Shown here: positions 246 through 32,000 of the stretch, piece after piece
How positions within the stretch are numbered: the first letter of the stretch is position 1
Layout: every line of letters begins with the position of its first letter
Assembly (NCBI GenBank): GCA_047651235.1
Contig: CP178758.1
Span: forward strand, 3,210,001 to 3,242,000
Source: Candidatus Electrothrix yaqonensis
GTDB taxonomy: Bacteria; Desulfobacterota; Desulfobulbia; Desulfobulbales; Desulfobulbaceae
DNA: 32,000 nucleotides
Direction: 5' to 3'
The notes under the pieces: generated by a model
Database searches by the model: none
The model's input: only the letters and a program-made list of their open reading frames with translations
What the model was told of the DNA's origin: nothing
Position numbers and translations under genes: made by a program

Positions 246-1823
246 TCAGCTGTTTTTTTTTTCGCCTTTTTTCGAGGCAGACGGTTTTGTTTTGCGTTCT
301 TCCGGTTCCAAGGTGACCGGCAGGGAAGTTTCTTCTTCCGTTTTTGTTTCGGCCAGCGGTTCAGGGCGGACAGTCACGGTCTTTTTATCAGGAATGGTCA
401 CGGTTGCGTTGACGCTGCTGTATCCTTCTTTATCCGCAGAGACAGTGCAGGTCCCGGTATGCACTTTTAGGCGGAACGGGACATCCGGCGAGGCTATGCC
501 GGAGCTCGATACTTCATCGTTGCAGGCAACAGAGACTATCGTACTGTTCACCGTGGAGAGAATGGCAAGGGGATATGTTGCCTGAACGAGCTGCAGAAAC
601 AGTTCGCTGTCTCCGTTGATTGACACCTCTTTTTCCAGCAGGGCATATCCTTCTTTCTGCGCGGAAATATGGTGGGTGCCTATAGGCAGATTCAGGGTGA
701 GCTGCCGTTTTTCAGCAATATATTCTTTTTCATCCGCAATAACGGTCACATTGTCCGTATTCAATTGGATGGTTAATTCGGGCAGAGGCAGAACAGCCTT
801 CAGGGTGTAATTTCCGGTCAGATGAAAATCCTGTTGAAAAGGAGCGGCTGCCAGCGGGTTGGTGACTTTTACTGTATGGTTTCCTGCCGGTAAAGAGACG
901 GTGACCGGGGTTCCGGCAGTAGTTGTCCCGACCCGGCTGTCGTTGAGCAGGACGGTGCTCTGATCAAGGTTTGCATGGACGGTGAGCAGGCAGTCAGCAG
1001 GCTGCAGGCTGAACGGAAGGACCTGAAAGCTGTCGAGGATGATCTCTTTATCTGCAGGGAGATACCCTGATTTTTCCGCCCGTACGCGGTAGCGCCCGGC
1101 AGGCAGATTGAGGCTGAGGCGGTTACCGGGACTGCGGTATTCCTGTTCTCCTATGGAGATGCTGACATCCTGCACATTGAAGATAAGTTTTAGAACAGCC
1201 GGTTGGTCGCCATCGGAAAGCAGGGAGGGAGAGAGCAGAACGCCTGCGGCACAGGTAATGCACAGAGCGAACAACAGGCAGAAAGATTGAAGCGGAAAGC
1301 GGAAAGTTTTTTGCGGCCTCTCCCTGACATCCTTGACCTCTCTGACAGAGCGGGCAGTTTTTTTTTTCGGCTCAGCCGACCGGCTTTCCAGGCTCTCTAT
1401 TCTGCTGATGCAGTGCAGGTGCTGTTCGGCTGCCGGGCGCAGGCATTCCGGGCAGGAGGCCGGATCAGTCTGCTCAGCATGATCGGTACAGGACTCTGTC
1501 TGATGTCTGCAGGGCGGAAAAACGAGATCTTTTTCCGGAACAAGTCCGTCTTCCGGTGTATCCGGGACAAATTCGAGAAACTCACCCCGTTCCAGATAGA
1601 ATTTTTCCACCAAGGTCGAACAGCTCAGATTTTCCTCCGTATCCGCTGTTATCTCCGTGGTAACTATATATTTATAAGATTCTTTCTGCTCCATATGATG
1701 CGTATGACGATAGAGGGTATCCTGTGCTTTTCCCTCGTTGCATAATGCGTCAAGAACGGGTTGAAGCTGTTCGTCGGGAAAGCTGCTGCCCGGAGCTGAT
1801 TCAGCTGAAAAGAGATTCAACAT
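246..1823 (-). CDS. Membrane-anchored PEGA-domain repeat protein with a Cys-rich cytoplasmic N-terminus, one TM helix and 4-5 PEGA-like repeats
   Basis: 525-aa ORF. Hydrophobic segment FCLLFALCITCAAGVLL. Recurrent PEGA-type motifs: LPAGRYRVRAEKSGY, LPIGTHHISAQKEGY, HTGTCTVSADKEGY, LPAGNHTVKVTNP. Confidence 0.7.
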   Translation of the reverse strand: MLNLFSAESAPGSSFPDEQLQPVLDALCNEGKAQDTLYRHTHHMEQKESYKYIVTTEITADTEENLSCSTLVEKFYLERGEFLEFVPDTPEDGLVPEKDLVFPPCRHQTESCTDHAEQTDPASCPECLRPAAEQHLHCISRIESLESRSAEPKKKTARSVREVKDVRERPQKTFRFPLQSFCLLFALCITCAAGVLLSPSLLSDGDQPAVLKLIFNVQDVSISIGEQEYRSPGNRLSLNLPAGRYRVRAEKSGYLPADKEIILDSFQVLPFSLQPADCLLTVHANLDQSTVLLNDSRVGTTTAGTPVTVSLPAGNHTVKVTNPLAAAPFQQDFHLTGNYTLKAVLPLPELTIQLNTDNVTVIADEKEYIAEKRQLTLNLPIGTHHISAQKEGYALLEKEVSINGDSELFLQLVQATYPLAILSTVNSTIVSVACNDEVSSSGIASPDVPFRLKVHTGTCTVSADKEGYSSVNATVTIPDKKTVTVRPEPLAETKTEEETSLPVTLEPEERKTKPSASKKGEKKNS

Positions 1824-2049
1824 GACGGAAGTCCGACATTCAGTGTTGTGTCGGAGAAGTCAGAGATTTACGGTTGCTGCTGCGATGTCTGCTGTGGACT
1901 TCCAGCCAGTGTACAATGTTTTGATTTTTTCTGAAAGTATTATCAGCCGGATAATCCGAAGCGGAAACAGTCCTGACCAATCCCCCTGCAATCCGCTGCA
2001 GAACCGCCTTGTTCCTTCCCGTATCCTGTCATCACGTCACTATATCCCG

Positions 2050-3054
2050 TCACCATATCCGCCCGCCTGCATAGCCTCCGCCCCTGAGCTGCTCCTGCAC
2101 CATTTTGATTTCCGTATAATCGAGCGGATCAATCCAGCCCGCAATACCGGCCTCCTGCACGGCTCTGTGATCCGGCTGCAGGGATCTGAGCACAGCCGCG
2201 ACCTGATCGGCCAGCTTCTGATCGACAGATGCTGTTCTGGCCAGCGGAAATCCCGGATATAGCTGGAGCAACATAATTTGAATATGCCCACAAGAGGCAT
2301 AAGTTTTGCCTTCACGCCTTTCAGATAGCTGATCCTGTATTCAGTTTATACTGCTCCAGCTATACAGTTCCGTTGAGCAGACATAGGGGAAATCCGAATG
2401 GAATTTCTGTTGCAGAATTTTGAAATCCTCCATTTCTACGGTTCCTGCTGCTGCCATGCGCTCCAGGATACTGGCCGGTACAGTGCCTGCATCAACCCTC
2501 CGCTGCAGGACAGCGCCGACCACAGCCCAGGGCGTATCAAAAAAACGCAGGGTGTGGAGGAAAGGATACGGATCAATCCCGGCATCCCGGAACTCCTTTT
2601 CCGCCATCTGCCAGCCGCCAAAGGACCAGCGCCGCACTGCGCCGAATTTTTTGTTTTCCAGATCGCTCAGGTCATTGACAAGCCGGTTGTCTGCTGCGGT
2701 GAACAGCACGGCACCGATAGAATCGGTCTTAATCAATTTCATGGTCAGCACTTCCACTGCGCCGTGCTGCTCTTTGGCAGTTATGAAGACAGAGGGGTCA
2801 GCGGTAAAAAAATGCACCTTTTCCTGCTCCACGACCGGCAGGACATCCGGGAATTCCAACGGAAGAATGACCACGGGTCTGCCTAATTTTTCCGTAAGAT
2901 ATTCGCCGGTGGCCTCCCAGCGGTGCGTAAAGCCCAACGGCCCGGTCCAGGAGAGAATTCCTATCCGTATTTCTTCGGTTTTCTCCTCTGCAGCCTGACA
3001 GGGCGCAGTAAAGGCGAGCAGCAGAGCAAGTGCTGCCAGAAGTATTCCTTGCAT
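2050..3054 (-). pseudogene. PhnD/SsuA-like periplasmic substrate-binding protein gene, interrupted by a MITE (5' part 2341..3054, 3' part 2050..2257)
   Basis: Signal peptide MQGILLAALALLLAFTAPCQA and a PhnD-like body. ORFs 2341..3054 and 2050..2274 are in the same frame. Removing 105 bp (element plus one TA) joins ...CSTELY to PGFPLARTASVDQKLADQV... without a stop. Confidence 0.75.
2258..2364 (-). mobile_element. MITE copy A: 103-bp element at 2260..2362 flanked by TA/TA
   Basis: It is the exact reverse complement of 23372..23478, 107/107 nt on manual comparison. The 11-bp perfect terminal inverted repeat TAGCTGGAGCA extends imperfectly to about 25 bp. A TA dinucleotide sits on both flanks. 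Confidence 0.85.
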
Positions 3055-14297: not shown

Positions 14298-14782
14298 CAT
14301 TCCTCCCTTATTTTTCTTTACAGCCTGCCCTGCGTACTGAAACGGATGATTCTTTACGTTTATACCTCCTGCAAAAAGAACATTATGATTGTATAGTAGG
14401 TTATAAACCTGACTTTGTCAATCAACTTGGGCAGACGGAACAAACCGGGGAAGAGGCAGGGTGCACAGACAGATTAACGATAAAAAACAATATGATAAAT
14501 TAACAAGAAAAAGTATACCATAACCAGATTTTCAGTGTACGGAACACGGTGCGATTCCGTGGCACTCCCGGTGCTGTAACCCCTGTTGTTCTATCCTTCG
14601 GCATGTACAGGCCACTGTTCCTTGACCAGGAACGGGAAGGCCGCTGCAAGGGAGGGGAAGCCAGAAGACGAACTGAACATCTCTGTATTGCGGAGCGCGA
14701 TGGCAAAGGGTTCCGGAGAGCAATTGCTCTGCCGGGCCCTTTCTGTTTCGGCAGGGCAAAAGGAACCAGAGGAGGTTCATGC

Positions 14783-16244
14783 ATGAAAACGCAACTTGAA
14801 GCAGCCCGTGCAGGCGTCATGACCGAACAGATCAGAACCGTTGCCCGCAACGAAGGCTTGGACCTAGTGCTCAGTCATAGCTAAATTTTAGGATTGATAT
14901 CTCCAAATAAGATACGAATATTAAACGAGTGCGATATGTTCAACCCTAAATTTTAGGCTTTACAAAGCACTAGAGCTTGTGCAGCGCCGGGTGGCAGCCG
15001 GGGAAATCGTTATTCTCAGCCATCCGCAACGACCAAACCAACAGGCAGTGGGGATCGGGACTGGTCTGCGCACCAAGGTGAATGCCTCCATCGGCACCTC
15101 ATCCGATATCTGCGACCCGGATATGGAGGTGCGCAAGGCAAAAATCGCCGAACAGGAAGGGGCTGACACCCTGATGGAACTCTCTGCAGCCGGGAACCTG
15201 AATACAGTCCGTCAAGCTGTCCTGGCTGCGGTCAATCTGCCGGTGGGTACTGTGCCGCTGTATCAGGCCTTCCGGGAAACAGCCCTGCAGCACGCTGATC
15301 CAGGCAGACTGGACCCTGAATACCTGTTTGACCTGATTGAGCAGCAGCTGGCCGATGGTGTCAGCTTTATGGCCATCCACTGCGGCATCAATCAATACAC
15401 AATTGAGCGCCTGCGGAAACAGGGTTACCGTTACGGCGGACTGGTGTCCAAGGGCGGCACCTTCATGGTGGCCTGGATGGACAGCAACGGTAAAGAGAAT
15501 CCTCTGTATGAGCAGTTTGACCGGGTCTGCGGTCTGATGAAAAAATACGATGCTGTCCTTTCTCTGGGCAACGGCATCCGGGCAGGGGCCATCCACGACA
15601 GCCATGACCGCGCTCAGATGGCTGAAATGGTCATCAACTGTGAACTGGCCGAGCTGGGGCGGGAAATGGGCTGCCAGATGATGGTGGAAGGACCGGGACA
15701 TGTTCCCTTGGACGAAATTGCCGCAAATATTCTGCTGGAAAAAAGAATGAGCGGCAATGCCCCGTATTACGTACTCGGTCCGCTCCCGCTGGACAGCGGC
15801 GCCGGATACGATCATATCACCGCAGCTATCGGCGCAGCAAATTCTTCCCGATACGGGGCAGACTTGGTCTGTTACATCACTCCGGCCGAGCATCTTGCCC
15901 TGCCTGATGAGGAGGATGTGCGCCAAGGTGTCCGGGCTGCCCGCCTGGCGGTCCGCATCGGTGACATTGCCAAATACCCTGATCGCCGGGAAAACGAAAA
16001 AGCTGCGGCTAAGGCCAGACGCGATATGCGCTGGGGTGATCTGGAGCAGCACCTCCTGTTTCCTGATATCGCTGATGCGATGCGCCGGGAAAGAATTCCT
16101 GAACACAAGGAGACCTGCACCATGTGCGGAGACTTCTGCGCCATGAAGCAGGGAGCTGCAGTCTTTGGCAAGGATATTGCCGGAGATAAATGCACGGAAG
16201 ATACGGAAAGCGGCAGCAAGCCGTGCGCAGGAGCATTTTCGTAA
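14783..16244 (+). pseudogene. thiC: Phosphomethylpyrimidine synthase ThiC (short anaerobe-type), interrupted by a 106-bp insertion
   Basis: AGGAGG RBS at 14770-14775 and ATG at 14783. The N-terminal reading MKTQLEAARAGVMTEQIRTVARNEGLD runs into a stop at 14882. The body (ORF 14979..16244) is ThiC-like and carries the C-terminal CTMCGDFC cluster motif. Deleting 106 bp (14864 to 14969) restores one 451-aa frame reading ...NEGLDLELVQRRVAAGEIV... Confidence 0.85.
14864..14969. mobile_element. MITE-like insertion inside thiC, including one copy of the duplicated CTAG (or TA)
   Basis: Termini CTAGTGCT...AGCACTAG. The subterminal motif CTAAATTTTAGG occurs near both ends. The core is AT-rich. CTAG is present at 14864-14867 and at 14970-14973. 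Confidence 0.7.
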
Positions 16245-20263: not shown

Positions 20264-21007
20264 TCAGGAAAGCAGGCCTGTTATATCTTCGACTAACTGT
20301 TCCACCGGCGTGTCATTGTCCCAGGTTATAGCCAGGCAGGTGTCATCGTCGGAAAATCGTTTATCCACTTCCAATAAGGCATGAGTAACCGTTCCGGTGG
20401 GCACAAAAGAAACCTCAATCTCCTGAATCTCGAACAGCGCATTTTCATTAGGTTTGAATTCAAGCTCCTGATATACGCCGGAAACCGATCTGAAGGAGTC
20501 ACCCTCCAGATATCCCTTTTCCACATCAGTCTGAAATAACGTATATCCGCAACCTTCCATCGCTTCCAGAAAATTGACCATTGCCGGGGTGGGCAGCACA
20601 GTCAGATAATCCTTGTCCGAAGCATCCAGCGCCATGTCGATTTCCAGTCCGGTCTGAAGCCAGACACGACTTTTGTTGTTGGGACAGGAGATTGCGGTAA
20701 TCGGGGTTTCTGGGTGGATCGTCGCCTCAAACGGAATGATCTTTTCCTCACCGGGCTGCAGGTCAAGCGCATCCGTCACCTTCCAGGTCTGCAGGGCAAT
20801 ATTACTCAGATATTCCTTATCGTCGGACTCCACCTCCGCCTGGGTCATCAGGGCCATATTTAACCCGCCGATGTTCTGCGCTACATCACCGCCTTTGACG
20901 ATGATCTCGGCCCGGAAGGTTTCACCGGGCATGAGCTGTTCATTTTCCAGAACAGCATCCACCTTTGCCGCACCGATTCCGACAGAAGCCAGCAGTTTCT
21001 TCAGCAT
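20264..21007 (-). CDS. SpoOM-family (sporulation-control-like, arrestin-fold) protein
   Basis: The start is trimmed to the ATG at 21007, preceded by AAGGAG. The N-terminus MLKKLLASVGIGAAKVDAVLENEQLMPGETFRAEIIVKGGDVAQ is characteristic of the SpoOM family. Confidence 0.75.
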   Translation of the reverse strand: MLKKLLASVGIGAAKVDAVLENEQLMPGETFRAEIIVKGGDVAQNIGGLNMALMTQAEVESDDKEYLSNIALQTWKVTDALDLQPGEEKIIPFEATIHPETPITAISCPNNKSRVWLQTGLEIDMALDASDKDYLTVLPTPAMVNFLEAMEGCGYTLFQTDVEKGYLEGDSFRSVSGVYQELEFKPNENALFEIQEIEVSFVPTGTVTHALLEVDKRFSDDDTCLAITWDNDTPVEQLVEDITGLLS

Positions 21008-21221
21008 GATTCTACTCCTTTTTTTTGGGGGAATGACTTTGTGTGCAAGACACCTGCGGACCAACGCCTCCCTTCTACAGATCGGGTCCATATTTTCTTC
21101 ATTTCCCAAACACTAACCTGTTTTCCCCAACTCGGTCAATCACAATCCGTGAAGCGGAGGTCAATCTGGATAAGACCGGCAGAAAATCCTCCAATAACCA
21201 ATGGCTGGGCAGGATTCAGTA

Positions 21222-21250
21222 TTGTCAGGTGATGCGGCACAGGATATGTT
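21222..21250 (+). promoter_or_regulatory. Candidate sigma70-type promoter for the 21297-25889 operon
   Basis: TTGTCA, 17 nt spacer, TATGTT, about 45 nt upstream of the AGGAGGG RBS and ATG at 21297. Confidence 0.3.
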
Positions 21251-21296
21251 TACATTGGAACAAAGATAACCGGCTGAAACCGAGCAGGAGGGCGTA

Positions 21297-21782
21297 ATGG
21301 AAGAATTGAAAATTTTTGTTGAACTGCCGCAGGAAGTGGAAAAATGGCTGATTCAGAACGAGACCAGTTTGGCGCGGCTGCTGCGGCAGCAGGGTGTGGA
21401 GGTGCGGGAAAGCCAAGATGTGAATCCCTTCCGGCAGGAGGACGGCAATGCGACTGAACGGGATATGAAACTGGTTCTTACCGTGACCAGTGCTGCCGTT
21501 GTGATTGTTGCTCTTGGTGTTGTAGCTGACAATATCCTCAAGACAATGAATAAAAAGCCGGTGTTCAGTATTGTCCGACGAGAGCGGGTCGTGCGTGATG
21601 CAAAGGGCGAAGTGGTGTTCGGCAAAGATGGCGAAGCAATCCGTGAATTTGAAGAAATTCCGTTGCTGCTGGAGCCAAGGGCGCAGGATTCAACAATGGG
21701 TGTTCAGTTGCAACTAAACGATCCGAAAACGGGCGACAAGTTTTTGCTGCGTATCGGCTCTTCCCATCAGGAGATAAAGTAA
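21297..21782 (+). CDS. Small single-pass membrane protein, first gene of the caspase-STAND operon
   Basis: 161-aa ORF with a strong RBS AGGAGGG. One TM helix, LVLTVTSAAVVIVALGVVADNIL. The stop lies 3 nt before the next start. Confidence 0.6.
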   Translation: MEELKIFVELPQEVEKWLIQNETSLARLLRQQGVEVRESQDVNPFRQEDGNATERDMKLVLTVTSAAVVIVALGVVADNILKTMNKKPVFSIVRRERVVRDAKGEVVFGKDGEAIREFEEIPLLLEPRAQDSTMGVQLQLNDPKTGDKFLLRIGSSHQEIK

Positions 21783-21785
21783 GCT

Positions 21786-23390
21786 ATGGCGTTTCGGGCC
21801 TTTGTTGTTGGGGCAAATTATGTTGATCTGAAATACGCTGAAAAAGATGCGCAGCGTATTGCCGATAGACTGCATGAACTTGCTTACGTACTTCCCGAAC
21901 CTCGGGTTCCTCCGCTTGGAGAGGATAAGAAAGCTATCCGTGAACGATTCGAAAAAGTTGCTTTTGACTGTAACCCGGAAGATACGCTGCTGTTTTATTT
22001 TGCCGGACATGGGCTGATTCACGAAGGTATACTTTGTTTGGTGCTTGATGGTTATGATCCATCTGCCAATCCGCTTCAGACCTGCTTGAACTTCAACGAT
22101 ATCAGCACAATCTTTCAAGGTGTTAGAGCAGCAGCTAAATTGGTTGTTCTTGACTGCTGCCATGCCGGAAAATCCTTTTCCCGTGTTGATTTCAATTTTT
22201 CCGATAACTATACAGTCCTTACTGCTTCAGAGTCTTTTAAAAAAGCGTTAGAGCTTAAAGACCACAAAGCCGGTTTCCTCAGCCACCACCTGCATAACGC
22301 CTTGACCGATGATCTGGAACAGGTTTCCCGTAACAGGCATGTCCTGCTGGGAAAGGTGCATCGTTATCTGAGGGAGAAGGTTCAAGAGCATAACCGCACC
22401 GCAGAACCATCTGACCGGGTTCCTGAAATCACCGATCTCTCAAAGCAGACAAAAGAAATCGTTCTGGCAGAGATCCCGGAAGATATGTCGCTGAAACCAA
22501 TCTACGGTCTTCAGCGCATCAACCATGCCTTTCTTGCTGCTCAAAAGGATAAAACCGGCCCGGAGTTCATCCCGGCAAATTTTTACGGAGCCATTCCAAA
22601 TGTGCAATGGTGGGGCGTTACCAATGATCTTGTATCTGAACAGAGCCTTTATCCTGCTGTGGAGGAGCATGTTCGGCAGGCGGTTAACGGCTATTTCCCG
22701 CTGATCGGAATTATTTACGGCAGCGGCGGCATGGGCAAGTCCATTCTTCTGCGCCGTCTTGGGGTGGCCTTGGCGGAGGAGTTTGATGTCTGGTGGCTGG
22801 AAGACACGGAGGAACTGCTCAAAGACAGAAAGGCTGCCGAGGAAAAGCTGCTGGAGTCCGGCAGGCCGCAGATTGTTCTCCTGGATGACTGGACAGCCTT
22901 GGAAGAGGATGCCCGTAAGGAATTGCGGACTTGGTTCAACCAGCTCAACAAGAGCGGCGACAGCAAGCAGCTCAAATTTGTTCTTACTGGTCGCAGTTGG
23001 AGCAACAGAGACTTATCAAAAAAGCTCATTTCTTCCGGTGGGCTGTTCGAGATGGACAAACAAAGTAATCTTGGTCAGGATAATCCTCTGCTTCTGGACA
23101 AAGCTGCCGAGGTTTTAAATGATCCTGAATGGCATGCCGCCGCCCAAGAGCTGCGTTCCACCAATCTAGCGCAGACCAAACCTTTTCATCTTCTCTTCGT
23201 CTTCATGCGGCTGGCACCGGAGAGCCTGCGGGAAAAGATCGCCAAAGGACAAGATGTAGCCTATATTTTTTCGGAGATCATTGAAAGCGATCTGGAAAGA
23301 CTGTGGCAGGATGAACACAGAAAAGGGCTGGCCGCCGCAGTCAGCACGATGGCATGGCTACACGTACAGTTTATAGCTGGAGCAGTATAA
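21786..23390 (+). CDS. N-terminal part of the split caspase-like / P-loop STAND NTPase / repeat protein
   Basis: Caspase dyad motifs LLFYFAGHG (His codon 22008-22010) and VVLDCCHAG (Cys codon 22158-22160). Walker A GSGGMGKS (22719-22742). Walker B IVLLDDW (22872-22892). The last 5 codons and the stop come from the MITE. Confidence 0.85.
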   Translation: MAFRAFVVGANYVDLKYAEKDAQRIADRLHELAYVLPEPRVPPLGEDKKAIRERFEKVAFDCNPEDTLLFYFAGHGLIHEGILCLVLDGYDPSANPLQTCLNFNDISTIFQGVRAAAKLVVLDCCHAGKSFSRVDFNFSDNYTVLTASESFKKALELKDHKAGFLSHHLHNALTDDLEQVSRNRHVLLGKVHRYLREKVQEHNRTAEPSDRVPEITDLSKQTKEIVLAEIPEDMSLKPIYGLQRINHAFLAAQKDKTGPEFIPANFYGAIPNVQWWGVTNDLVSEQSLYPAVEEHVRQAVNGYFPLIGIIYGSGGMGKSILLRRLGVALAEEFDVWWLEDTEELLKDRKAAEEKLLESGRPQIVLLDDWTALEEDARKELRTWFNQLNKSGDSKQLKFVLTGRSWSNRDLSKKLISSGGLFEMDKQSNLGQDNPLLLDKAAEVLNDPEWHAAAQELRSTNLAQTKPFHLLFVFMRLAPESLREKIAKGQDVAYIFSEIIESDLERLWQDEHRKGLAAAVSTMAWLHVQFIAGAV

Positions 23391-23478
23391 ACTGAATACA
23401 GGATCAGCTATCTGAAAGGCGTGAAGGCAAAACTTATGCCTCTTGTGGGCATATTCAAATTATGTTGCTCCAGCTATA
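23372..23478 (+). mobile_element. MITE copy B: 103-bp element at 23374..23476 flanked by TA/TA
   Basis: Identical to the reverse complement of 2258..2364. Removing 105 bp gives the continuous reading ...AWLHVQF-SPYFYFTKNALRN... Confidence 0.85.
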
Positions 23479-25889
23479 GTCCGTATTTTTATTTCACCAA
23501 AAATGCCCTGCGAAACCTAGTAGCCTACCGCAATCCGGACTATCCACTTCCACCATCCACAGATTGGGGAATTCCGCTGAAATATTATTTGTATGCCTAC
23601 CAAAATCCGACAAACAAGCGGGAGGATGCGGAAGAATATGTTGCCTTCATTAAAGACGACTTTGCTAAAAAGTTGTCTGAGGCGGACAGTTTCAGAGATT
23701 CCCCTTATGCGGAAAACTTCTGGCTGACTGATGCGGAGTTCATTATTCGGAAAGCGGATGTGTATTCCTCATCCATGCTGCTATACAGCATCTGCCAAAA
23801 GATGCTCAGTGAAGATCTCCCGAAAGACTGGACAGAGACGCAGATGAAGGCGATGATTCTTGCCCAACTTGAGCGGGACAACGGCCATCATGCCTATGCC
23901 TGGCTACTGCTGCAAGATGGCATCTTTACCGATGAAGCGGAACGCTGGGAGCTGATTGAGCTATATCTTGCCCTTGCGCCGAAGAATGTTCGGTTTGTAG
24001 TGCCGTTTTTGAAATGGGGAAAGAAGGCTGCGCTGAAACGGACTCGGTCTGTTGCCAAGAGTCTGCTGGAGGTGGAGGGGCAAGTTGCGGATGTCATCTG
24101 CACTGCTCTGAATTTTCTGGACAGAGACGAAGCCAAGCTGTTTGCCAAAGAGCTGCTGGATAAGGATGGGCAGGTTGCGGATGTCATCTGCGTAGCTCTG
24201 AATCTTCTGGACAGAGACGAAGCCAAGCTGTTTGCCAAAGAGCTGCTGGACGTGGAGGGGCAACATCCGTTTGTCATCTGCACTGCTCTGAATCTTTTGG
24301 ATCGTGAAGAAGCCAAGTCCTTTGCCAGAAAACTGTTGCTGGAGGAAAAAAGGCAGGAGCATCAAATTATCTGCACCGTGCTGAATCTGAATCTTTTGGA
24401 TCGTGAAGAAGCCAAGCCTTTTGCCAAAGAGCTGCTGGATAAGGATGGGCAGGTTGCGGATGTCATCTGCGTAGCTCTGAATCTTCTGGACAGAGACGAA
24501 GCCAAGCTGTTTGCCAAAGAGCTGCTGGACGTGGAGGGGCAACATCCGTTTGTCATCTGCACTGCTCTGAATCTTCTGGACAGAGACGAAGCCAAGCTGT
24601 TTGCCAAAGAGCTGCTGGAGGTGGAGGGGCAAGTTGCGGATGTCATCTGCACAGCTCTGAAGCTTTTGGACAGAGATGAAGCCAAAACTTTTGCCAGAAA
24701 GCTGCTGGACGTGGAGGGGCAACATCCGTTTGTCATCTGCACTGCTCTGAATATCCTGAACAAGGAGGAAGCCAGCCCCTTCGCCAGAAAACTATTGCTG
24801 GAGGAAAAAAGGCAGGAGCAGGAAATCATTTGCACCGTGCTGAATCTGAATCTTTTGGATCGTGAAGAAGCCAAGCCTTTTGCCAAAGAGCTGCTGGACG
24901 TGGAGGGGCAACATCCGTTTGTCATCTGCACTGCTCTGAATATCCTGAACAAGGAGGAAGCCAGCCCCTTTGCCAGAAAACTATTGCTGGAGGAAAAAAG
25001 GCAGGAGCAGGAAATCATTTGCACTGTACTGAATCTGAATCTTCTGGATAGTGAAGAAGCCAAACCTTTTGCCAGAAAACTGCTGGAGGTGGAGGGGCAA
25101 GTTGCGGATGTCATCTGCACAGCTCTGAAGCTTTTGGACAGAGACAAAGCCAAGCCTTTTGCCAGAAAGCTGTTGCTGGAGGAAAAAAGGCAGGAGCAGG
25201 AAATCATTTGCACCGTGCTGAATCTGAATCTTCTGGACCAAGAAGAAGCCAAGCCCTTTGCTTGGAAGCTGATTAAGGAGCCGAACCAGACGATGCAATT
25301 ACGCTGCGCCGCATTGCATGTTCTCGGCAAAGAAGCAGCGGATTACGCTGCACGGGTTCTGGACAACTGGAAAAAGGAGCCGTTCAATGTTGTGCTGCGC
25401 AGTCTCAACATTCTGCCGAAGGACAAAAAGACAGCAGAAATTATCACCTCATTGCTGAAACGCAAGAGGAAAACACATGAATACTTCAGGGTACTCGCTT
25501 TCCCCTTTCCTGCCGTTGCAGCATGGCAGCAGGAGGTTGAGAATATCGTCCGCAATTGGAAGTATAAGAATCGCAGAGCAGTTGCATCCGTGCTACCGCA
25601 TTATTTTGAGGATCCATATTTCCTGAAACAACCCTGTTTTGAAATTCTTGGCTGGTGGAAGCGCGATATAGAATACCAACGCAGAAAATTCCCTCAAAGT
25701 ATCTGCACAGATCATATCCTCATCGCCCTCGGCCATCCCCATCTCCGCGCCCCGGCAGGCCGAGTTGCCGCCGGAATGCTGCTGGATGAAAAAGAGCATC
25801 CCGGCTTTCTCGGCGAAAAGCTGCTTCAGGCCGCAGAGGACATTGTCAATGACGGCATATATCCTGATTGGGAAAACGAAGAAAACTGA
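23421..25889 (+). CDS. C-terminal part of the split caspase-STAND protein: helical linker plus tandem 30/33-aa repeats. Native coding resumes at 23477; the first 19 codons come from the MITE.
   Basis: It is in the same frame as 21786..23390. The GTG (23421) and ATG (23436) starts lie inside the MITE. There are 13 near-identical repeats and at least 2 degenerate ones. Confidence 0.8.
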   Translation: MKAKLMPLVGIFKLCCSSYSPYFYFTKNALRNLVAYRNPDYPLPPSTDWGIPLKYYLYAYQNPTNKREDAEEYVAFIKDDFAKKLSEADSFRDSPYAENFWLTDAEFIIRKADVYSSSMLLYSICQKMLSEDLPKDWTETQMKAMILAQLERDNGHHAYAWLLLQDGIFTDEAERWELIELYLALAPKNVRFVVPFLKWGKKAALKRTRSVAKSLLEVEGQVADVICTALNFLDRDEAKLFAKELLDKDGQVADVICVALNLLDRDEAKLFAKELLDVEGQHPFVICTALNLLDREEAKSFARKLLLEEKRQEHQIICTVLNLNLLDREEAKPFAKELLDKDGQVADVICVALNLLDRDEAKLFAKELLDVEGQHPFVICTALNLLDRDEAKLFAKELLEVEGQVADVICTALKLLDRDEAKTFARKLLDVEGQHPFVICTALNILNKEEASPFARKLLLEEKRQEQEIICTVLNLNLLDREEAKPFAKELLDVEGQHPFVICTALNILNKEEASPFARKLLLEEKRQEQEIICTVLNLNLLDSEEAKPFARKLLEVEGQVADVICTALKLLDRDKAKPFARKLLLEEKRQEQEIICTVLNLNLLDQEEAKPFAWKLIKEPNQTMQLRCAALHVLGKEAADYAARVLDNWKKEPFNVVLRSLNILPKDKKTAEIITSLLKRKRKTHEYFRVLAFPFPAVAAWQQEVENIVRNWKYKNRRAVASVLPHYFEDPYFLKQPCFEILGWWKRDIEYQRRKFPQSICTDHILIALGHPHLRAPAGRVAAGMLLDEKEHPGFLGEKLLQAAEDIVNDGIYPDWENEEN
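24054..25259 (+). repeat. In-frame tandem repeat array of 13 units (nine of 90 bp, four of 99 bp)
   Basis: Unit consensus: A(K/R)(E/K)LL-x8-(V/I)IC(T/V)(A/V)LN(LN)LLDR(D/E)EAK(L/P)F. A 156-bp block at 24141-24296 is identical to 24420-24575. The block at about 24708-24860 recurs at about 24897-25050 with a few SNPs. Confidence 0.9.
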
Positions 25890-26052
25890 GGCGGCAACAG
25901 TATTGCGGTCCTGCAGAGACGGCTCAATGTACAGACCCCGCAGGGTTTCCGGATCATGATCTCCTCCTTATGCTGTACCCGCCGGAATAAAAATGAGTCT
26001 TTTCTTTCCGGCGTTAAAACGCCGGTCTATTCTTGGGACTGATTGAGAATGA

Positions 26053-26379
26053 TCACCGCCCCTTCTCGCCAAAGGCACAGGCGGTGCCAGCAAGAGCGAA
26101 CAGAAACAGGCACGGCGCAAGTACCTTTCTTCTGCCGAAGCGGTCGGCCAGTATTCCCAGAACAGGCGTCAGGATGACACCGGGAACTGTAAAAACAGTG
26201 AGCAGCAGGCCGATATCCTTGGGGGATAGAGCCAGTTCCGCCACAATAGAGGGAAAGGCCGGGGTGATACTGGCAACTCCAAGGACCCCCATCAGAGTAA
26301 CAGCAAAGATAATCTGCAAATTTCTGTCCTGCCAGAGTTTTTCTCCGCCGGACGGCTGCGTTTCCTGCTCTGATTTCAT
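26053..26379 (-). pseudogene. 3'-truncated MFS transporter gene; only the first 3 TM helices remain
   Basis: 108-aa ORF with MFS motif A (GILADRFGRRKVL). It ends after TM3, and only about 160 bp separate it from the convergent STAND gene. Confidence 0.6.
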
Positions 26380-26597
26380 GGCGCTTTTTGCTCCGCAGCG
26401 TCTTGTCGTTCTCTACCTTCTGCAGAAGAATACTGTTTTTCTTTGTCCCGCAAAACATGATGCGGTCAGCCATCGTAGAGGCGGGGGCCGGTTTTGTCAA
26501 GCAAAAGCACGGAGGGCAGGTAAAAGTGTGAGATTCAGAACGGTTGTGCTTTTTTGCTGTCTGCGGCAATGAGAAGAAGGATCGTGAATCGTGAAAT

Positions 26598-30122: not shown

Positions 30123-30209
30123 TCAGAACAGACTTCTTCCTTCTGCCACAGCCGCGCTGTGCAGTCCGGATAGGAGGCCAAGAAGGAGAAGAAGTCTGTT
30201 GAAAATCAT
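30123..30209 (-). CDS. Leucine-rich leader peptide (28 aa): MIFNRLLLLLGLLSGLHSAAVAEGRSLF
   Basis: Five consecutive Leu codons (CTT CTT CTC CTT CTT), 8 Leu in total. The Leu-codon segment can pair with GCAGAAGGAAGAAGTCTGTT downstream. It lies between the promoter and the terminator. Confidence 0.6.
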   Translation of the reverse strand: MIFNRLLLLLGLLSGLHSAAVAEGRSLF

Positions 30210-30237
30210 AGTCGCTTGTTTCCTGATGATACCTCCC

Positions 30238-30265
30238 ATCATAAGACAGGGTTCTGCATTGTCAA
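30238..30265 (-). promoter_or_regulatory. Sigma70-type promoter of the leu leader and leuA
   Basis: On the minus strand: TTGACA (30260-30265), 16 nt spacer, TATGAT (30238-30243). Confidence 0.55.
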
Positions 30266-30334
30266 GCATCAATTTTGCTTTGGGAAAAAATAACTTCTGA
30301 ATTTACTGTGAGCTACGTTACTGCAATTCCCCTG

Positions 30335-30363
30335 TTGACACGGGAAGATATGTTTCGTAAATT
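30335..30363 (+). promoter_or_regulatory. Candidate sigma70-type promoter facing the ept gene
   Basis: TTGACA (30335-30340), 17 nt spacer, TAAATT (30358-30363). Confidence 0.35.
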
Positions 30364-30381
30364 GATTGATCGTAATGTTTC

Positions 30382-30430
30382 AATATAGAAGCATGTTTTC
30401 CAGACAGCTTCTATATTTTATCGTGTTTTT
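30382..30430 (+). promoter_or_regulatory. Terminator-like hairpin in the putative ept leader
   Basis: AATATAGAAGC, 14 nt loop, GCTTCTATATT, followed by TTATCGTGTTTTTCTT. Confidence 0.35.
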
Positions 30431-30596
30431 CTTGCAGAAAAACTCATGCAGGGGAATTGCAGCAAAAAAATGAATAATCAGTATTCGTTCCCGGAATTCC
30501 GAACAGAATATCGGATAAAATGAGGATAAACGGAAGCGATAAAGCGTTCCGGGAAACTGAACATTCTCTCCTGTCAGTCAAGTCAGTCAAAAAAGG

Positions 30597-32000
30597 ATGT
30601 TGGCAAATTATCTTTCCGACCTTATTTCTGGAAAAAGGCAGATCACAGCAACAAAACTTTTGTTCCTTCTCTCTCTGTTCTTTGTTGCTATATACAACAT
30701 AGCTTTTTTTCGCCACATCTTAGCAGTATACCCTTTGTCTCCAAAGAATTTTTATTTTTTAATCTCATTAACTGCCGGAATAACCTTTGTTATATTTTTA
30801 TTGTTCACCCTGATAACCTCAGCAGGCGGAACAAAACCGATCCTGATATTTTTTCTTATAACATCATCCGTTGCAGCATATTTCATGGACAGCTATGATG
30901 TCGTCATAGACCACATCATGATGCAGAACATAGCTGAAACAGACTGGTCGGAAACCTATGATCTGCTGAATATAAAAATACTGTATTATCTTCTGCTCCT
31001 CGGCCTGCTGCCGAGCTGGTTTGTATACCGGGTCAGGATTACAGCCGAATCTCTGAAAAAATCGATTTTCCGCAAAATACGGGATAGCTTTGTTGCCGTC
31101 CTGTTAATCTTTGCAATAATTTTAACATTCAGCAGGTTCTATACTTCATTCTTCAGAGAGCATAAGCCGCTACGGTATTACAGCAATCCCGGGTATTATG
31201 TTTATTCCTTCGGGAAATACATAAGCCAGAACTTCAATCTGCATAAAAAAACAGTCTCTCCGCTCGGGCTTGATGCGGAAGCAACTGAGCCCACTCATGA
31301 CGAACAGCAAAAAGAATTGGTGATCCTCGTTGTCGGAGAAGCGGCCAGAGCAGATCATTTTTCCTTAAACGGTTATCCGAAAGAAACAAATCCTCTGTTA
31401 AAAAAAGAGGATATCATAAGTATGAGCAGAGTATTCTCCTGCGGGACATCTACAGCGTATTCCGTTCCCTGTATGTTTTCTGTTTTTCCACGAGCAGAAT
31501 TCAGCCACAGCAGGGGCAAGGCAAATGAAAATGTATTGGACGTATTGCACCATACAGGTTTTGTCGATATCTTATGGCGGGATAACAACTCTGATTCAAA
31601 AGGTGTTGCCCTGCGTGTTGCTTATGAAGATTACAGCCTTCCGGAAAACAATACTCTTTGTTCAGATGGGGAATGCAGAGACGAGGGTATGCTGGTCGGG
31701 CTTGATCAGTATATTGCGGAACATCAGGGGAGAGATATTCTGATCATTCTCCATCAGATGGGAAATCACGGTCCGGCCTATTATAAAAGATACCCGAAAG
31801 CATTTGAACAATTCACCCCGGCCTGTACAACAAATCAGCTAGAAGAATGCACGCAGGAGGAAATAATCAATGCGTATGACAATGCGCTGTTATATACAGA
31901 CTACTTCCTGTCCAAGGTGATTGATCTGTTAAAAAAATATGATAAAAACCATGAAACGGCGATGATCTACTTCAGTGATCACGGTGAGAGCCTGGGAGAA
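30597..32000 (+). CDS. eptA: Phosphoethanolamine transferase of the EptA/PmrC/MCR family; 3' end lies beyond the window
   Basis: It is absent from the ORF track because no stop falls in the window. My translation gives 5 N-terminal TM helices, then VILVVGEAARADHFSLNGYPKETNP, SCGTSTAYSVPCMFS, LHQMGNHGPAYYKRYP, YDNALLYTDYF and YFSDHGESLGE. These match the E. coli EptA motif order. Confidence 0.9.
   Translation, partial: MLANYLSDLISGKRQITATKLLFLLSLFFVAIYNIAFFRHILAVYPLSPKNFYFLISLTAGITFVIFLLFTLITSAGGTKPILIFFLITSSVAAYFMDSYDVVIDHIMMQNIAETDWSETYDLLNIKILYYLLLLGLLPSWFVYRVRITAESLKKSIFRKIRDSFVAVLLIFAIILTFSRFYTSFFREHKPLRYYSNPGYYVYSFGKYISQNFNLHKKTVSPLGLDAEATEPTHDEQQKELVILVVGEAARADHFSLNGYPKETNPLLKKEDIISMSRVFSCGTSTAYSVPCMFSVFPRAEFSHSRGKANENVLDVLHHTGFVDILWRDNNSDSKGVALRVAYEDYSLPENNTLCSDGECRDEGMLVGLDQYIAEHQGRDILIILHQMGNHGPAYYKRYPKAFEQFTPACTTNQLEECTQEEIINAYDNALLYTDYFLSKVIDLLKKYDKNHETAMIYFSDHGESLGE

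Follow-up and report, generated by a model that had tools for sequence, protein, structure and literature searches.

A two-gene caspase-STAND locus split by a MITE in a cable bacterium, a probable suicide or immunity module of the EACC1-caspase kind

We studied a two-gene locus in a 32,000-nt stretch of the genome of the multicellular cable bacterium Candidatus Electrothrix yaqonensis (contig CP178758.1, positions 3,210,001 to 3,242,000 of the forward strand), which is called the window below and to which all coordinates refer. The locus lies on the plus strand and consists of a gene for a small protein of 161 amino acids (aa) and, directly downstream, a large gene encoding a caspase-like domain, a STAND P-loop NTPase domain and an array of helical repeats; in this genome the large gene is split by a miniature inverted-repeat transposable element (MITE). 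By analogy with a characterised pair from Ktedonobacter racemifer, we consider it fairly probable that the two genes represent a mobile module of the EACC1-caspase kind (EACC1, effector-associated constant component) for cell suicide or immunity, whose small partner would kill through the membrane. What was observed here is how the domains are arranged, that their key motifs are invariant, that the two genes are strictly paired and that their genomic context varies. Systems of this type have already been published and their mechanism worked out; the small-protein family is unannotated, and the present copy is broken.

The small gene directly precedes caspase genes with variable C-termini

The open reading frame (ORF) of the small protein (161 aa, 21297..21782) is separated by 3 nt from the ATG of the caspase-STAND gene at 21786, as the original prediction had described, and a Shine-Dalgarno-like AGGAGGG (21286..21292), read directly from the sequence, stands 4 nt upstream of the small-gene ATG. 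We found that gene context provides the strongest evidence on the nature of this locus. All non-cable members of the small-protein family with readable downstream DNA (7/7) directly precede a Peptidase_C14 gene, at a distance of a few bases, and what follows the caspase domain varies: nSTAND1 and FGE-sulfatase (L005), nSTAND5 (L022/L023), FGE-sulfatase only (L024), NACHT and HEAT in a 2249-aa protein of the Anabaena cylindrica plasmid pANACY.03 (L025), NACHT and HEAT again (L027), and AAA_16 and TPR (L029), while the downstream caspase gene of L004 is cut off at 94 aa. The Anabaena small protein, WP_015217807.1, matched the family hidden Markov model (HMM) with E = 1.7e-60. The small gene also lies directly upstream of a caspase gene in three cable-bacterial or Desulfobacteraceae loci. 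This pairing is strict, and it matches the rule by which EACC1 systems were defined, namely a constant small component next to a caspase with a variable C-terminus (PMC7159879). The small gene is thus the constant partner of the caspase gene and EACC1-like in its logic. Neither small-protein family was present upstream of the distant caspase loci obtained from the GTDB scan (L011-L021). As a separate observation, genes annotated as coding for an ATP-binding protein and for a type IV secretion DNA-binding protein lie upstream in the Anabaena cylindrica PCC 7122 locus (L025, 7001-14407).

The gene pair changes its neighbours from genome to genome. In the window it is located between a Spo0M gene and a fragment of a major facilitator superfamily (MFS) gene, in Electronema between PFK and ClpB, and in a Desulfobacteraceae metagenome-assembled genome in yet another neighbourhood. 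A full-length orthologue was found in only 3 of ~185,000 GTDB species representatives, so that the distribution proved patchy and non-syntenic, as foreseen. Moreover, orthologous genes show decay: P0019 has lost all repeats (the copy in Candidatus Electronema sp. KV, L009, 221-2473, ends at ~700 aa without them, directly before ClpB), and in P0017 a frameshift affects the C-terminal tail. We conclude that the module is most likely mobile and patchily distributed. No insertion scar in the form of direct or inverted repeats was found on either side of the gene pair. As to the idea of an accessory island, the neighbourhoods differ among genomes, but the flanking genes here are housekeeping genes and form no defence island.

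The large protein combines a caspase domain, a STAND NTPase and a repeat solenoid

Deletion of 105 nt of the MITE in silico restored a single ORF of 1332 aa, as against the ~1,330 aa originally proposed, and residues are numbered on this restored protein. Its N-terminus carries a caspase-like domain (aa 4-201, 21795..22388). Peptidase_C14 of Pfam matched residues 4-139 (E = 4.5e-9, 36.8 bits, gathering cut-off 21.4), and the NCBIfam model NF047832, 'caspase, EACC1-associated type', matched residues 13-201 (E = 5.3e-24) with 84.9 bits against a curated cut-off of 140. KrAvs12, a validated EACC1 partner, scored 83.2 bits and likewise fell below 140, indicating that this cut-off excludes true non-actinobacterial members; caspases adjoining other members of the small-protein family scored 63-98 bits. 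The proposed His/Cys dyad, His75 in FYFAGHG (residues 70-76, codon 22008-22010) and Cys125 in LDCCHAG (residues 122-128, codon 22158-22160), was borne out, as His75 and Cys124/125 are invariant in 7/7 aligned sequences; two orthologues, P0016 and P0019, carry LDCCRAG in place of LDCCHAG. Among solved structures the best match, a weak one, was MALT1 (E = 0.02, 16 bits), with the GHG and LD(M/C)C motifs aligned and Cys125 opposite the Cys of the MALT1 LDMC motif; we take the MALT1 residues to be C464 and H415. MALT1 and the metacaspases, in which the Asp two residues before the catalytic Cys is part of the basic-P1 pocket, share this Asp with the window caspase. When we aligned the domain with the first 399 aa of KrAvs12, Cys125 fell on the catalytic C152, mutation of which abolishes cleavage (Evans et al., bioRxiv 10.1101/2025.11.14.688446). 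In PADLOC-DB 2.0 the large protein matched only PDLC02987 'caspase' (E = 5.7e-8) and, weakly, mad8.

The caspase domain is followed by a STAND P-loop NTPase domain (aa 274-410, 22605..23015), identified by PF25199 nSTAND_NTPase5 with 34.0 bits, which equals the gathering cut-off of 34.0 exactly and is borderline. The same model is precomputed in all six orthologues, and weaker matches in this region were to nSTAND3, AAA_22 and AAA_16. Walker A (GSGGMGKS, residues 312-319, 22719-22742) and Walker B (IVLLDDW, residues 363-369, 22872-22892) were both located, and GSGGMGKS and LLDDW are invariant in 7/7 aligned sequences. With a helical region and then a solenoid downstream, these results agree with the STAND assignment made earlier.

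Between the NTPase and the repeats, residues 529-720 (23479..24050) are kept in orthologues and are wholly helical in the AlphaFold2 (AF2) model, with low confidence for the first ~90 residues. The repeat array (aa 721-1162, 24051..25376) contains 13 canonical units of 30/33 aa and one degenerate unit, in line with the predicted minimum of 13 near-identical repeats. The units fall into three subtypes, QVADV, QHPFV and KRQEQEI. Tandem Repeats Finder reported a period of 90 nt with 12.2 copies and a period of 459 nt with 2.4 copies and 84% matches, the 459-nt block corresponding to five repeat units. Because this block is repeated 2.4 times at 84% identity, and orthologue arrays have fewer units (about 5-10 as against 13), the array has expanded recently. 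The AF2 model of the large protein (predicted local distance difference test, pLDDT, 78) shows a regular helix-pair solenoid and then a helical cap; each repeat unit is modelled as a helix pair of ~10 and 13 residues with a pLDDT of ~85. The cap (aa 1163-1332 with the stop codon, 25377..25889) is also conserved in the orthologue alignment.

The repeat had been proposed as novel, which stands at the level of sequence: no Pfam repeat model matched the array at E <= 1. The predicted fold, in contrast, is generic, and a Foldseek search with the solenoid returned generic TPR, HAT and HEAT structures only (E = 1e-6 to 1e-4, TM-scores mostly 0.2-0.3). The repeat is thus a new sequence family on what is modelled as an ordinary alpha/alpha solenoid fold, and the solenoid may serve as the sensor. 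Caspase, nSTAND5 domain and solenoid follow one another in the order expected of a protease effector, a STAND switch and a repeat sensor. A search of viral contigs yielded no relative of the large protein. On the points at which the original prediction had said that it could fail, the findings went its way: the caspase and STAND matches are significant, the dyad is conserved and the distribution is patchy.

A MITE splits the large gene behind the NTPase core

The MITE occupies 23372..23478 on the plus strand (TATAGCTGGAGC...GCTCCAGCTATA; 107 nt including both flanking TA dinucleotides, 105 nt net) and carries an in-frame TAA at 23388-23390. It has 34-nt terminal inverted repeats that are 79% complementary, folds as a hairpin with z = -4.45 and contains no ORF. 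A second copy, identical in 107/107 positions, lies at 2258..2364 on the minus strand, and both copies have TA at both ends. A short element without an ORF, with inverted repeats, a TA duplication and two 100% identical copies within 32 kb has the properties of a MITE, presumably of IS630/Tc1-mariner style. Neither the exact core nor a pattern of the inverted repeats only matched in JGI metagenome contigs. The copy at 2258-2364 overlaps the 3′ end of an ORF without a Pfam match (1822-2262, plus strand) as well as the end of the ORF for a phosphonate-binding protein (2341-3054, minus strand).

As a result of the insertion, the large gene reads as ORF-A (21786-23390, 534 aa) and ORF-B (23421-25889, 822 aa) in one shared frame, the part upstream of the element (21786..23373) encoding aa 1-528 and the opening base of codon 529. 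Outside the MITE, the 3999 nt are free of further stop codons and of frameshifts. A whole-protein homology search, dominated by repeat-derived words, yielded only six orthologues (750-1127 aa, 51-58% identity); they are uninterrupted and align straight across the junction, and those of 944-1127 aa read through the insertion site. Moreover, an independent Logan contig (L001) stops 9 nt past the ORF-A stop codon, within the MITE. Since the orthologues run through the junction and the Logan assembly breaks in the element, we regard the insertion as real and the in-silico repair as justified. It is probably recent, because the two copies are identical and both gene halves are otherwise intact. The sole candidate for a restart of ORF-B, a GTG or ATG within the MITE, is weak and has a poor Shine-Dalgarno sequence. 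The MITE thus splits the gene after the NTPase core, and the module is probably switched off here.

The small partner is a member of an unannotated family with a constant layout

A hypothetical protein of the cable bacterium Candidatus Electrothrix sp. YB6 is 100% identical to the 161-aa protein, and among the 13 close homologues of the latter those with an organism name come from cable bacteria. Pfam, NCBIfam and PADLOC gave no match for it. Among 1.84 billion representatives, a profile search identified 168 clusters of ~150-aa proteins. The same layout recurs over 82 of these family members: an N-terminal strand-helix-helix part, a linker with Pro44, K/R-D/E, a hydrophobic helix of mainly Ala, Ser and Gly character, K/R87-P88 and a beta-rich tail in which Gly and Pro are conserved. 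In the window protein the N-terminal beta-alpha-alpha domain (aa 1-43, 21297..21425) is modelled by AF2 with a strand at residues 4-9 and helices at 12-20 and 25-31, and it is almost invariant across cable-bacterial orthologues. Judged from the K. racemifer pair, it may be an autoinhibitory or docking part. The linker (aa 44-56, 21426..21464) begins with Pro44, reads NPF..ED and then R55-D56 directly before the hydrophobic helix, and is predicted with pLDDT <50 at residues 46-57; it holds a candidate protease site. Position 55 is K/R in 82/82 family sequences and position 56 is D/E in 70/82.

The helix that follows (aa 57-84, 21465..21548) is rich in Ala, Ser and Gly, as delineated from hydropathy, AF2 and column composition. 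Its hydrophobic core, residues 59-77, averages 2.63 on the Kyte-Doolittle scale, consistent with the single transmembrane-type segment proposed at the outset, and AF2 places a helix at 66-84. The C-terminal part (aa 85-161, 21549..21779) is beta-rich, with AF2 strands at 86-98, 116-129, 136-141 and 148-153, conserved Gly and Pro in the tail, and the conserved motifs K/R87-P88, RD..G....D..G.P and LLEP; EACC1 lacks a C-terminal part as long as this.

Four giant proteins (P0021, P0022, P0050 and P0072), with 7-17 matching stretches each, were considered as family members and rejected as unrelated repetitive proteins; their Pfam content consists of DUF7507 Ig-like arrays and a FERM protein, and P0022 (2236 aa) has no Pfam match. 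These four together with P0062 and P0121 match profile positions ~97-143 repeatedly. The giant-protein matches are probably artefacts of composition or repeats.

Proposed function and alternative explanations

The large protein would act as an NLR-like STAND switch. Its 13-unit solenoid may bind a trigger, for example a phage protein, upon which the nSTAND5 domain would oligomerise in an NTP-dependent manner and bring the N-terminal caspase domains together, so that the protease would become active. The caspase could then cut within the linker of the small protein (aa 44-56); the most likely site would be R55-D56, which immediately precedes the hydrophobic helix. Such a cut would remove the N-terminal autoinhibitory domain, and the C-terminal fragment, comprising the helix and the beta-rich tail, may oligomerise in the membrane and permeabilise it, leading to the death of one cell of the filament. 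The trigger, the cleavage of the small protein and the pore formation in this scheme are modelled on KrEACC1-KrAvs12 of Ktedonobacter racemifer, in which the caspase cleaves the small protein, the C-terminal fragment is toxic and forms pores, and the system responds to phage tail-connector proteins (bioRxiv 10.1101/2025.11.14.688446). The same study named CATASP, another caspase-associated small protein (Evans et al., bioRxiv 10.1101/2025.11.14.688446).

Several findings weigh against this explanation. The first concern the small protein, which the original prediction had likened to EACC1. Neither the window protein nor any of the 82 family members matched PF19953, the Pfam EACC1 model, at E <= 1, while the positive controls were detected (KrEACC1 matched, and the Streptomyces plasmid protein W1SF4 scored 24.3 bits against a cut-off of 23.6). 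The NCBIfam EACC1 test was likewise without a match for the small protein, a result that is uninformative, as KrEACC1 also had no match. Comparing the small-protein alignment A3 with two EACC1 alignments by hhalign gave probabilities of 14% (A4, E = 0.0019) and 10.5% (A7), these EACC1 alignments being shallow (Neff 1.8-2.3), and HMM cross-searches between the small-protein family and EACC1 found nothing. The hhalign path is collinear (Asp, helix, basic patch, hairpin) and sets D56 opposite D49 of KrEACC1, which is weak support and not significant; D49 lies before the helix, does not vary within the EACC1 alignment and is where KrEACC1 is reported to be cut (Evans et al., bioRxiv 10.1101/2025.11.14.688446). 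With 150-165 aa as against ~114 aa for EACC1, and a C-terminal extension of ~75 aa with four predicted strands, the small protein is also ~45 aa longer. The resemblance is therefore one of layout and gene context: the caspase is of the EACC1-associated type and the family precedes caspase-X genes, but none of the sequence tests places the protein in PF19953. Because there is no Pfam match, the hhalign probability is 10-14% and the protein is longer, transfer of the mechanism rests on context and topology rather than on demonstrated homology, and every step of it at this locus is carried over by analogy. In addition, R55-D56 is replaced by L-G in 2/12 cable-bacterial orthologues, AF2 modelled the small protein with only moderate confidence (pLDDT 64) and the model has no structural neighbour in the PDB, and no Avs model of PADLOC-DB 2.0 matched at E <= 1, Avs12 being newer than that library. 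At the level of the locus, the flanks are housekeeping genes rather than a defence island, the caspase-STAND gene is interrupted in this genome, and two orthologues are damaged by truncation or frameshift.

The same biochemistry could serve another purpose, namely a developmental or stress-induced cell-death device of the filament (sacrificial cells, breakage, 'ghost' cells) whose solenoid senses endogenous damage. The multicellular habit of the host, the family member in filamentous Anabaena and the position of the locus outside a defence island are compatible with this. EACC1 systems are tied statistically to a multicellular habit (650/671 organisms; PMC7159879), and the cable-bacteria literature links uncharacterised caspase-domain genes with ghost cells (PMC12163305). 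However, a gene that is patchily present, shifts its context, can sit on a plasmid and often decays looks more like an accessory conflict gene than a core developmental one, the array varies from ~5 to 13 units with a recent segmental duplication, as for an arms-race sensor, and the one tested relative answers phage tail-connector proteins. We therefore regard a developmental role as unlikely. In the original EACC1 proposal of Kaur et al. 2020 (PMC7159879), the small protein was a membrane anchor or sensor. Here a resident small protein of this sort would activate the caspase, and the lethal substrates would be other cellular proteins or self-cleaved parts of the large protein. The strongly hydrophobic 19-residue core with basic residues on either side would suit an anchor, and the near invariance of the N-terminal domain in cable bacteria would suit a docking surface. 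We nevertheless find this improbable, since in the one tested EACC1 system it is the small protein that is cleaved and its C-terminal fragment that acts as the toxin, and a Pfam scan of the large protein recognised no effector domain besides the protease. Going further, the 150-165-aa proteins, represented by the window protein, Anabaena cylindrica WP_015217807.1 and at least 168 metagenome clusters, might be a second caspase-licensed membrane-killing family, independent of EACC1 or anciently related to it, and in cable bacteria the executioner that makes ghost cells or breakage points; we hold this very unlikely.

A different question is whether the locus still works in this strain. There is, in our estimate, an even chance that it is a dead relic whose function was abolished by the MITE and neither half of which is active. 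The in-frame TAA inside the element, the weak restart of ORF-B and the decay of orthologues (P0019, P0017) agree with that, whereas the absence of any other lesion in the 3999 nt and the complete identity of the MITE copies, which points to a probably recent insertion, do not; in principle, a split protease-NTPase and a separate sensor could still associate. This explanation concerns the condition in which the gene is now found, and it is compatible with that of a suicide or immunity module.

Comparison with known systems

EACC1-caspase is 'System 4' of Kaur et al. 2020, eLife (PMC7159879). Like it, the window system has a small gene directly upstream of a caspase gene with variable parts that include STAND NTPases and repeats, and both are associated with multicellular bacteria. 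The two caspases score alike on NF047832 (84.9 bits here, 83.2 for KrAvs12) with the catalytic Cys aligned, and in both small proteins an alpha+beta part at the N-terminus is followed by a conserved acidic residue, a central helix of small residues, a basic patch and beta strands. The window small protein differs in its longer beta-rich C-terminus (150-165 as against ~114 aa) and in that a basic residue, itself invariant, stands before the acidic one; here, the NTPase is nSTAND5 and the putative sensor is a 30/33-aa solenoid without a Pfam match.

The large protein has the same tripartite order as Avs and other NLR-like STAND ATPases: the effector, a protease in this case, is N-terminal, the P-loop NTPase lies in the middle and the helical-repeat sensor is C-terminal. 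Unlike in Avs, the killing step of the window system would be handed to a separate small protein. The bacterial gasdermins are similar in that a neighbouring protease removes the inhibitory part of a latent membrane permeabiliser, as we suppose for the window pair; a bacterial gasdermin with an adjacent caspase-like protease was reportedly described by Johnson and colleagues in Science in 2022. Gasdermins have ~250-300 aa and a C-terminal inhibitory peptide. There is no sequence or fold relation between the two, and in the window protein the inhibitory part would be N-terminal.

The principle of a STAND-controlled caspase licensing a small pore former is known, and the value of the present locus is the extension of a known kind. 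Pfam, NCBIfam and PADLOC miss the small family paired with caspase-X genes, so that such systems are missed or half annotated. The sharply conserved K/R-D/E before a latent membrane helix amounts to a concrete prediction of a protease cut. Furthermore, the gene pair is a defined candidate for regulated single-cell death in the cable-bacterial filament, and the role of caspase-domain genes in cable bacteria has been listed as an open question (PMC12163305).

Surroundings of the locus and other features of the window

Downstream of the operon, a terminator-like hairpin (26008..26025, plus strand) was detected by consensus scan only, a scan whose site count did not exceed that of shuffled sequence. 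The 3′ end of the module adjoins the truncated MFS transporter gene (26053..26379, minus strand), confirmed as a 107-aa fragment that matches MFS_1 with E = 1.2e-16 and covers profile positions 2-81 of 347; no continuation of this gene was found in any frame of 25890-26060. No Rfam family was present in 20900-26400.

Elsewhere in the window, ~1.8 kb at ~30200-32000 have a low G+C content (39-44%, as against ~51% elsewhere) and contain neither an ORF of >90 aa nor a tRNA or Rfam match. On the plus strand at 14516-14691, a cobalamin riboswitch (RF00174, 73.1 bits) stands upstream of a ThiC-family radical SAM gene (14979-16244). Because of this riboswitch, the gene suggests a benzimidazole (B12 lower-ligand) synthase rather than a thiamine ThiC.

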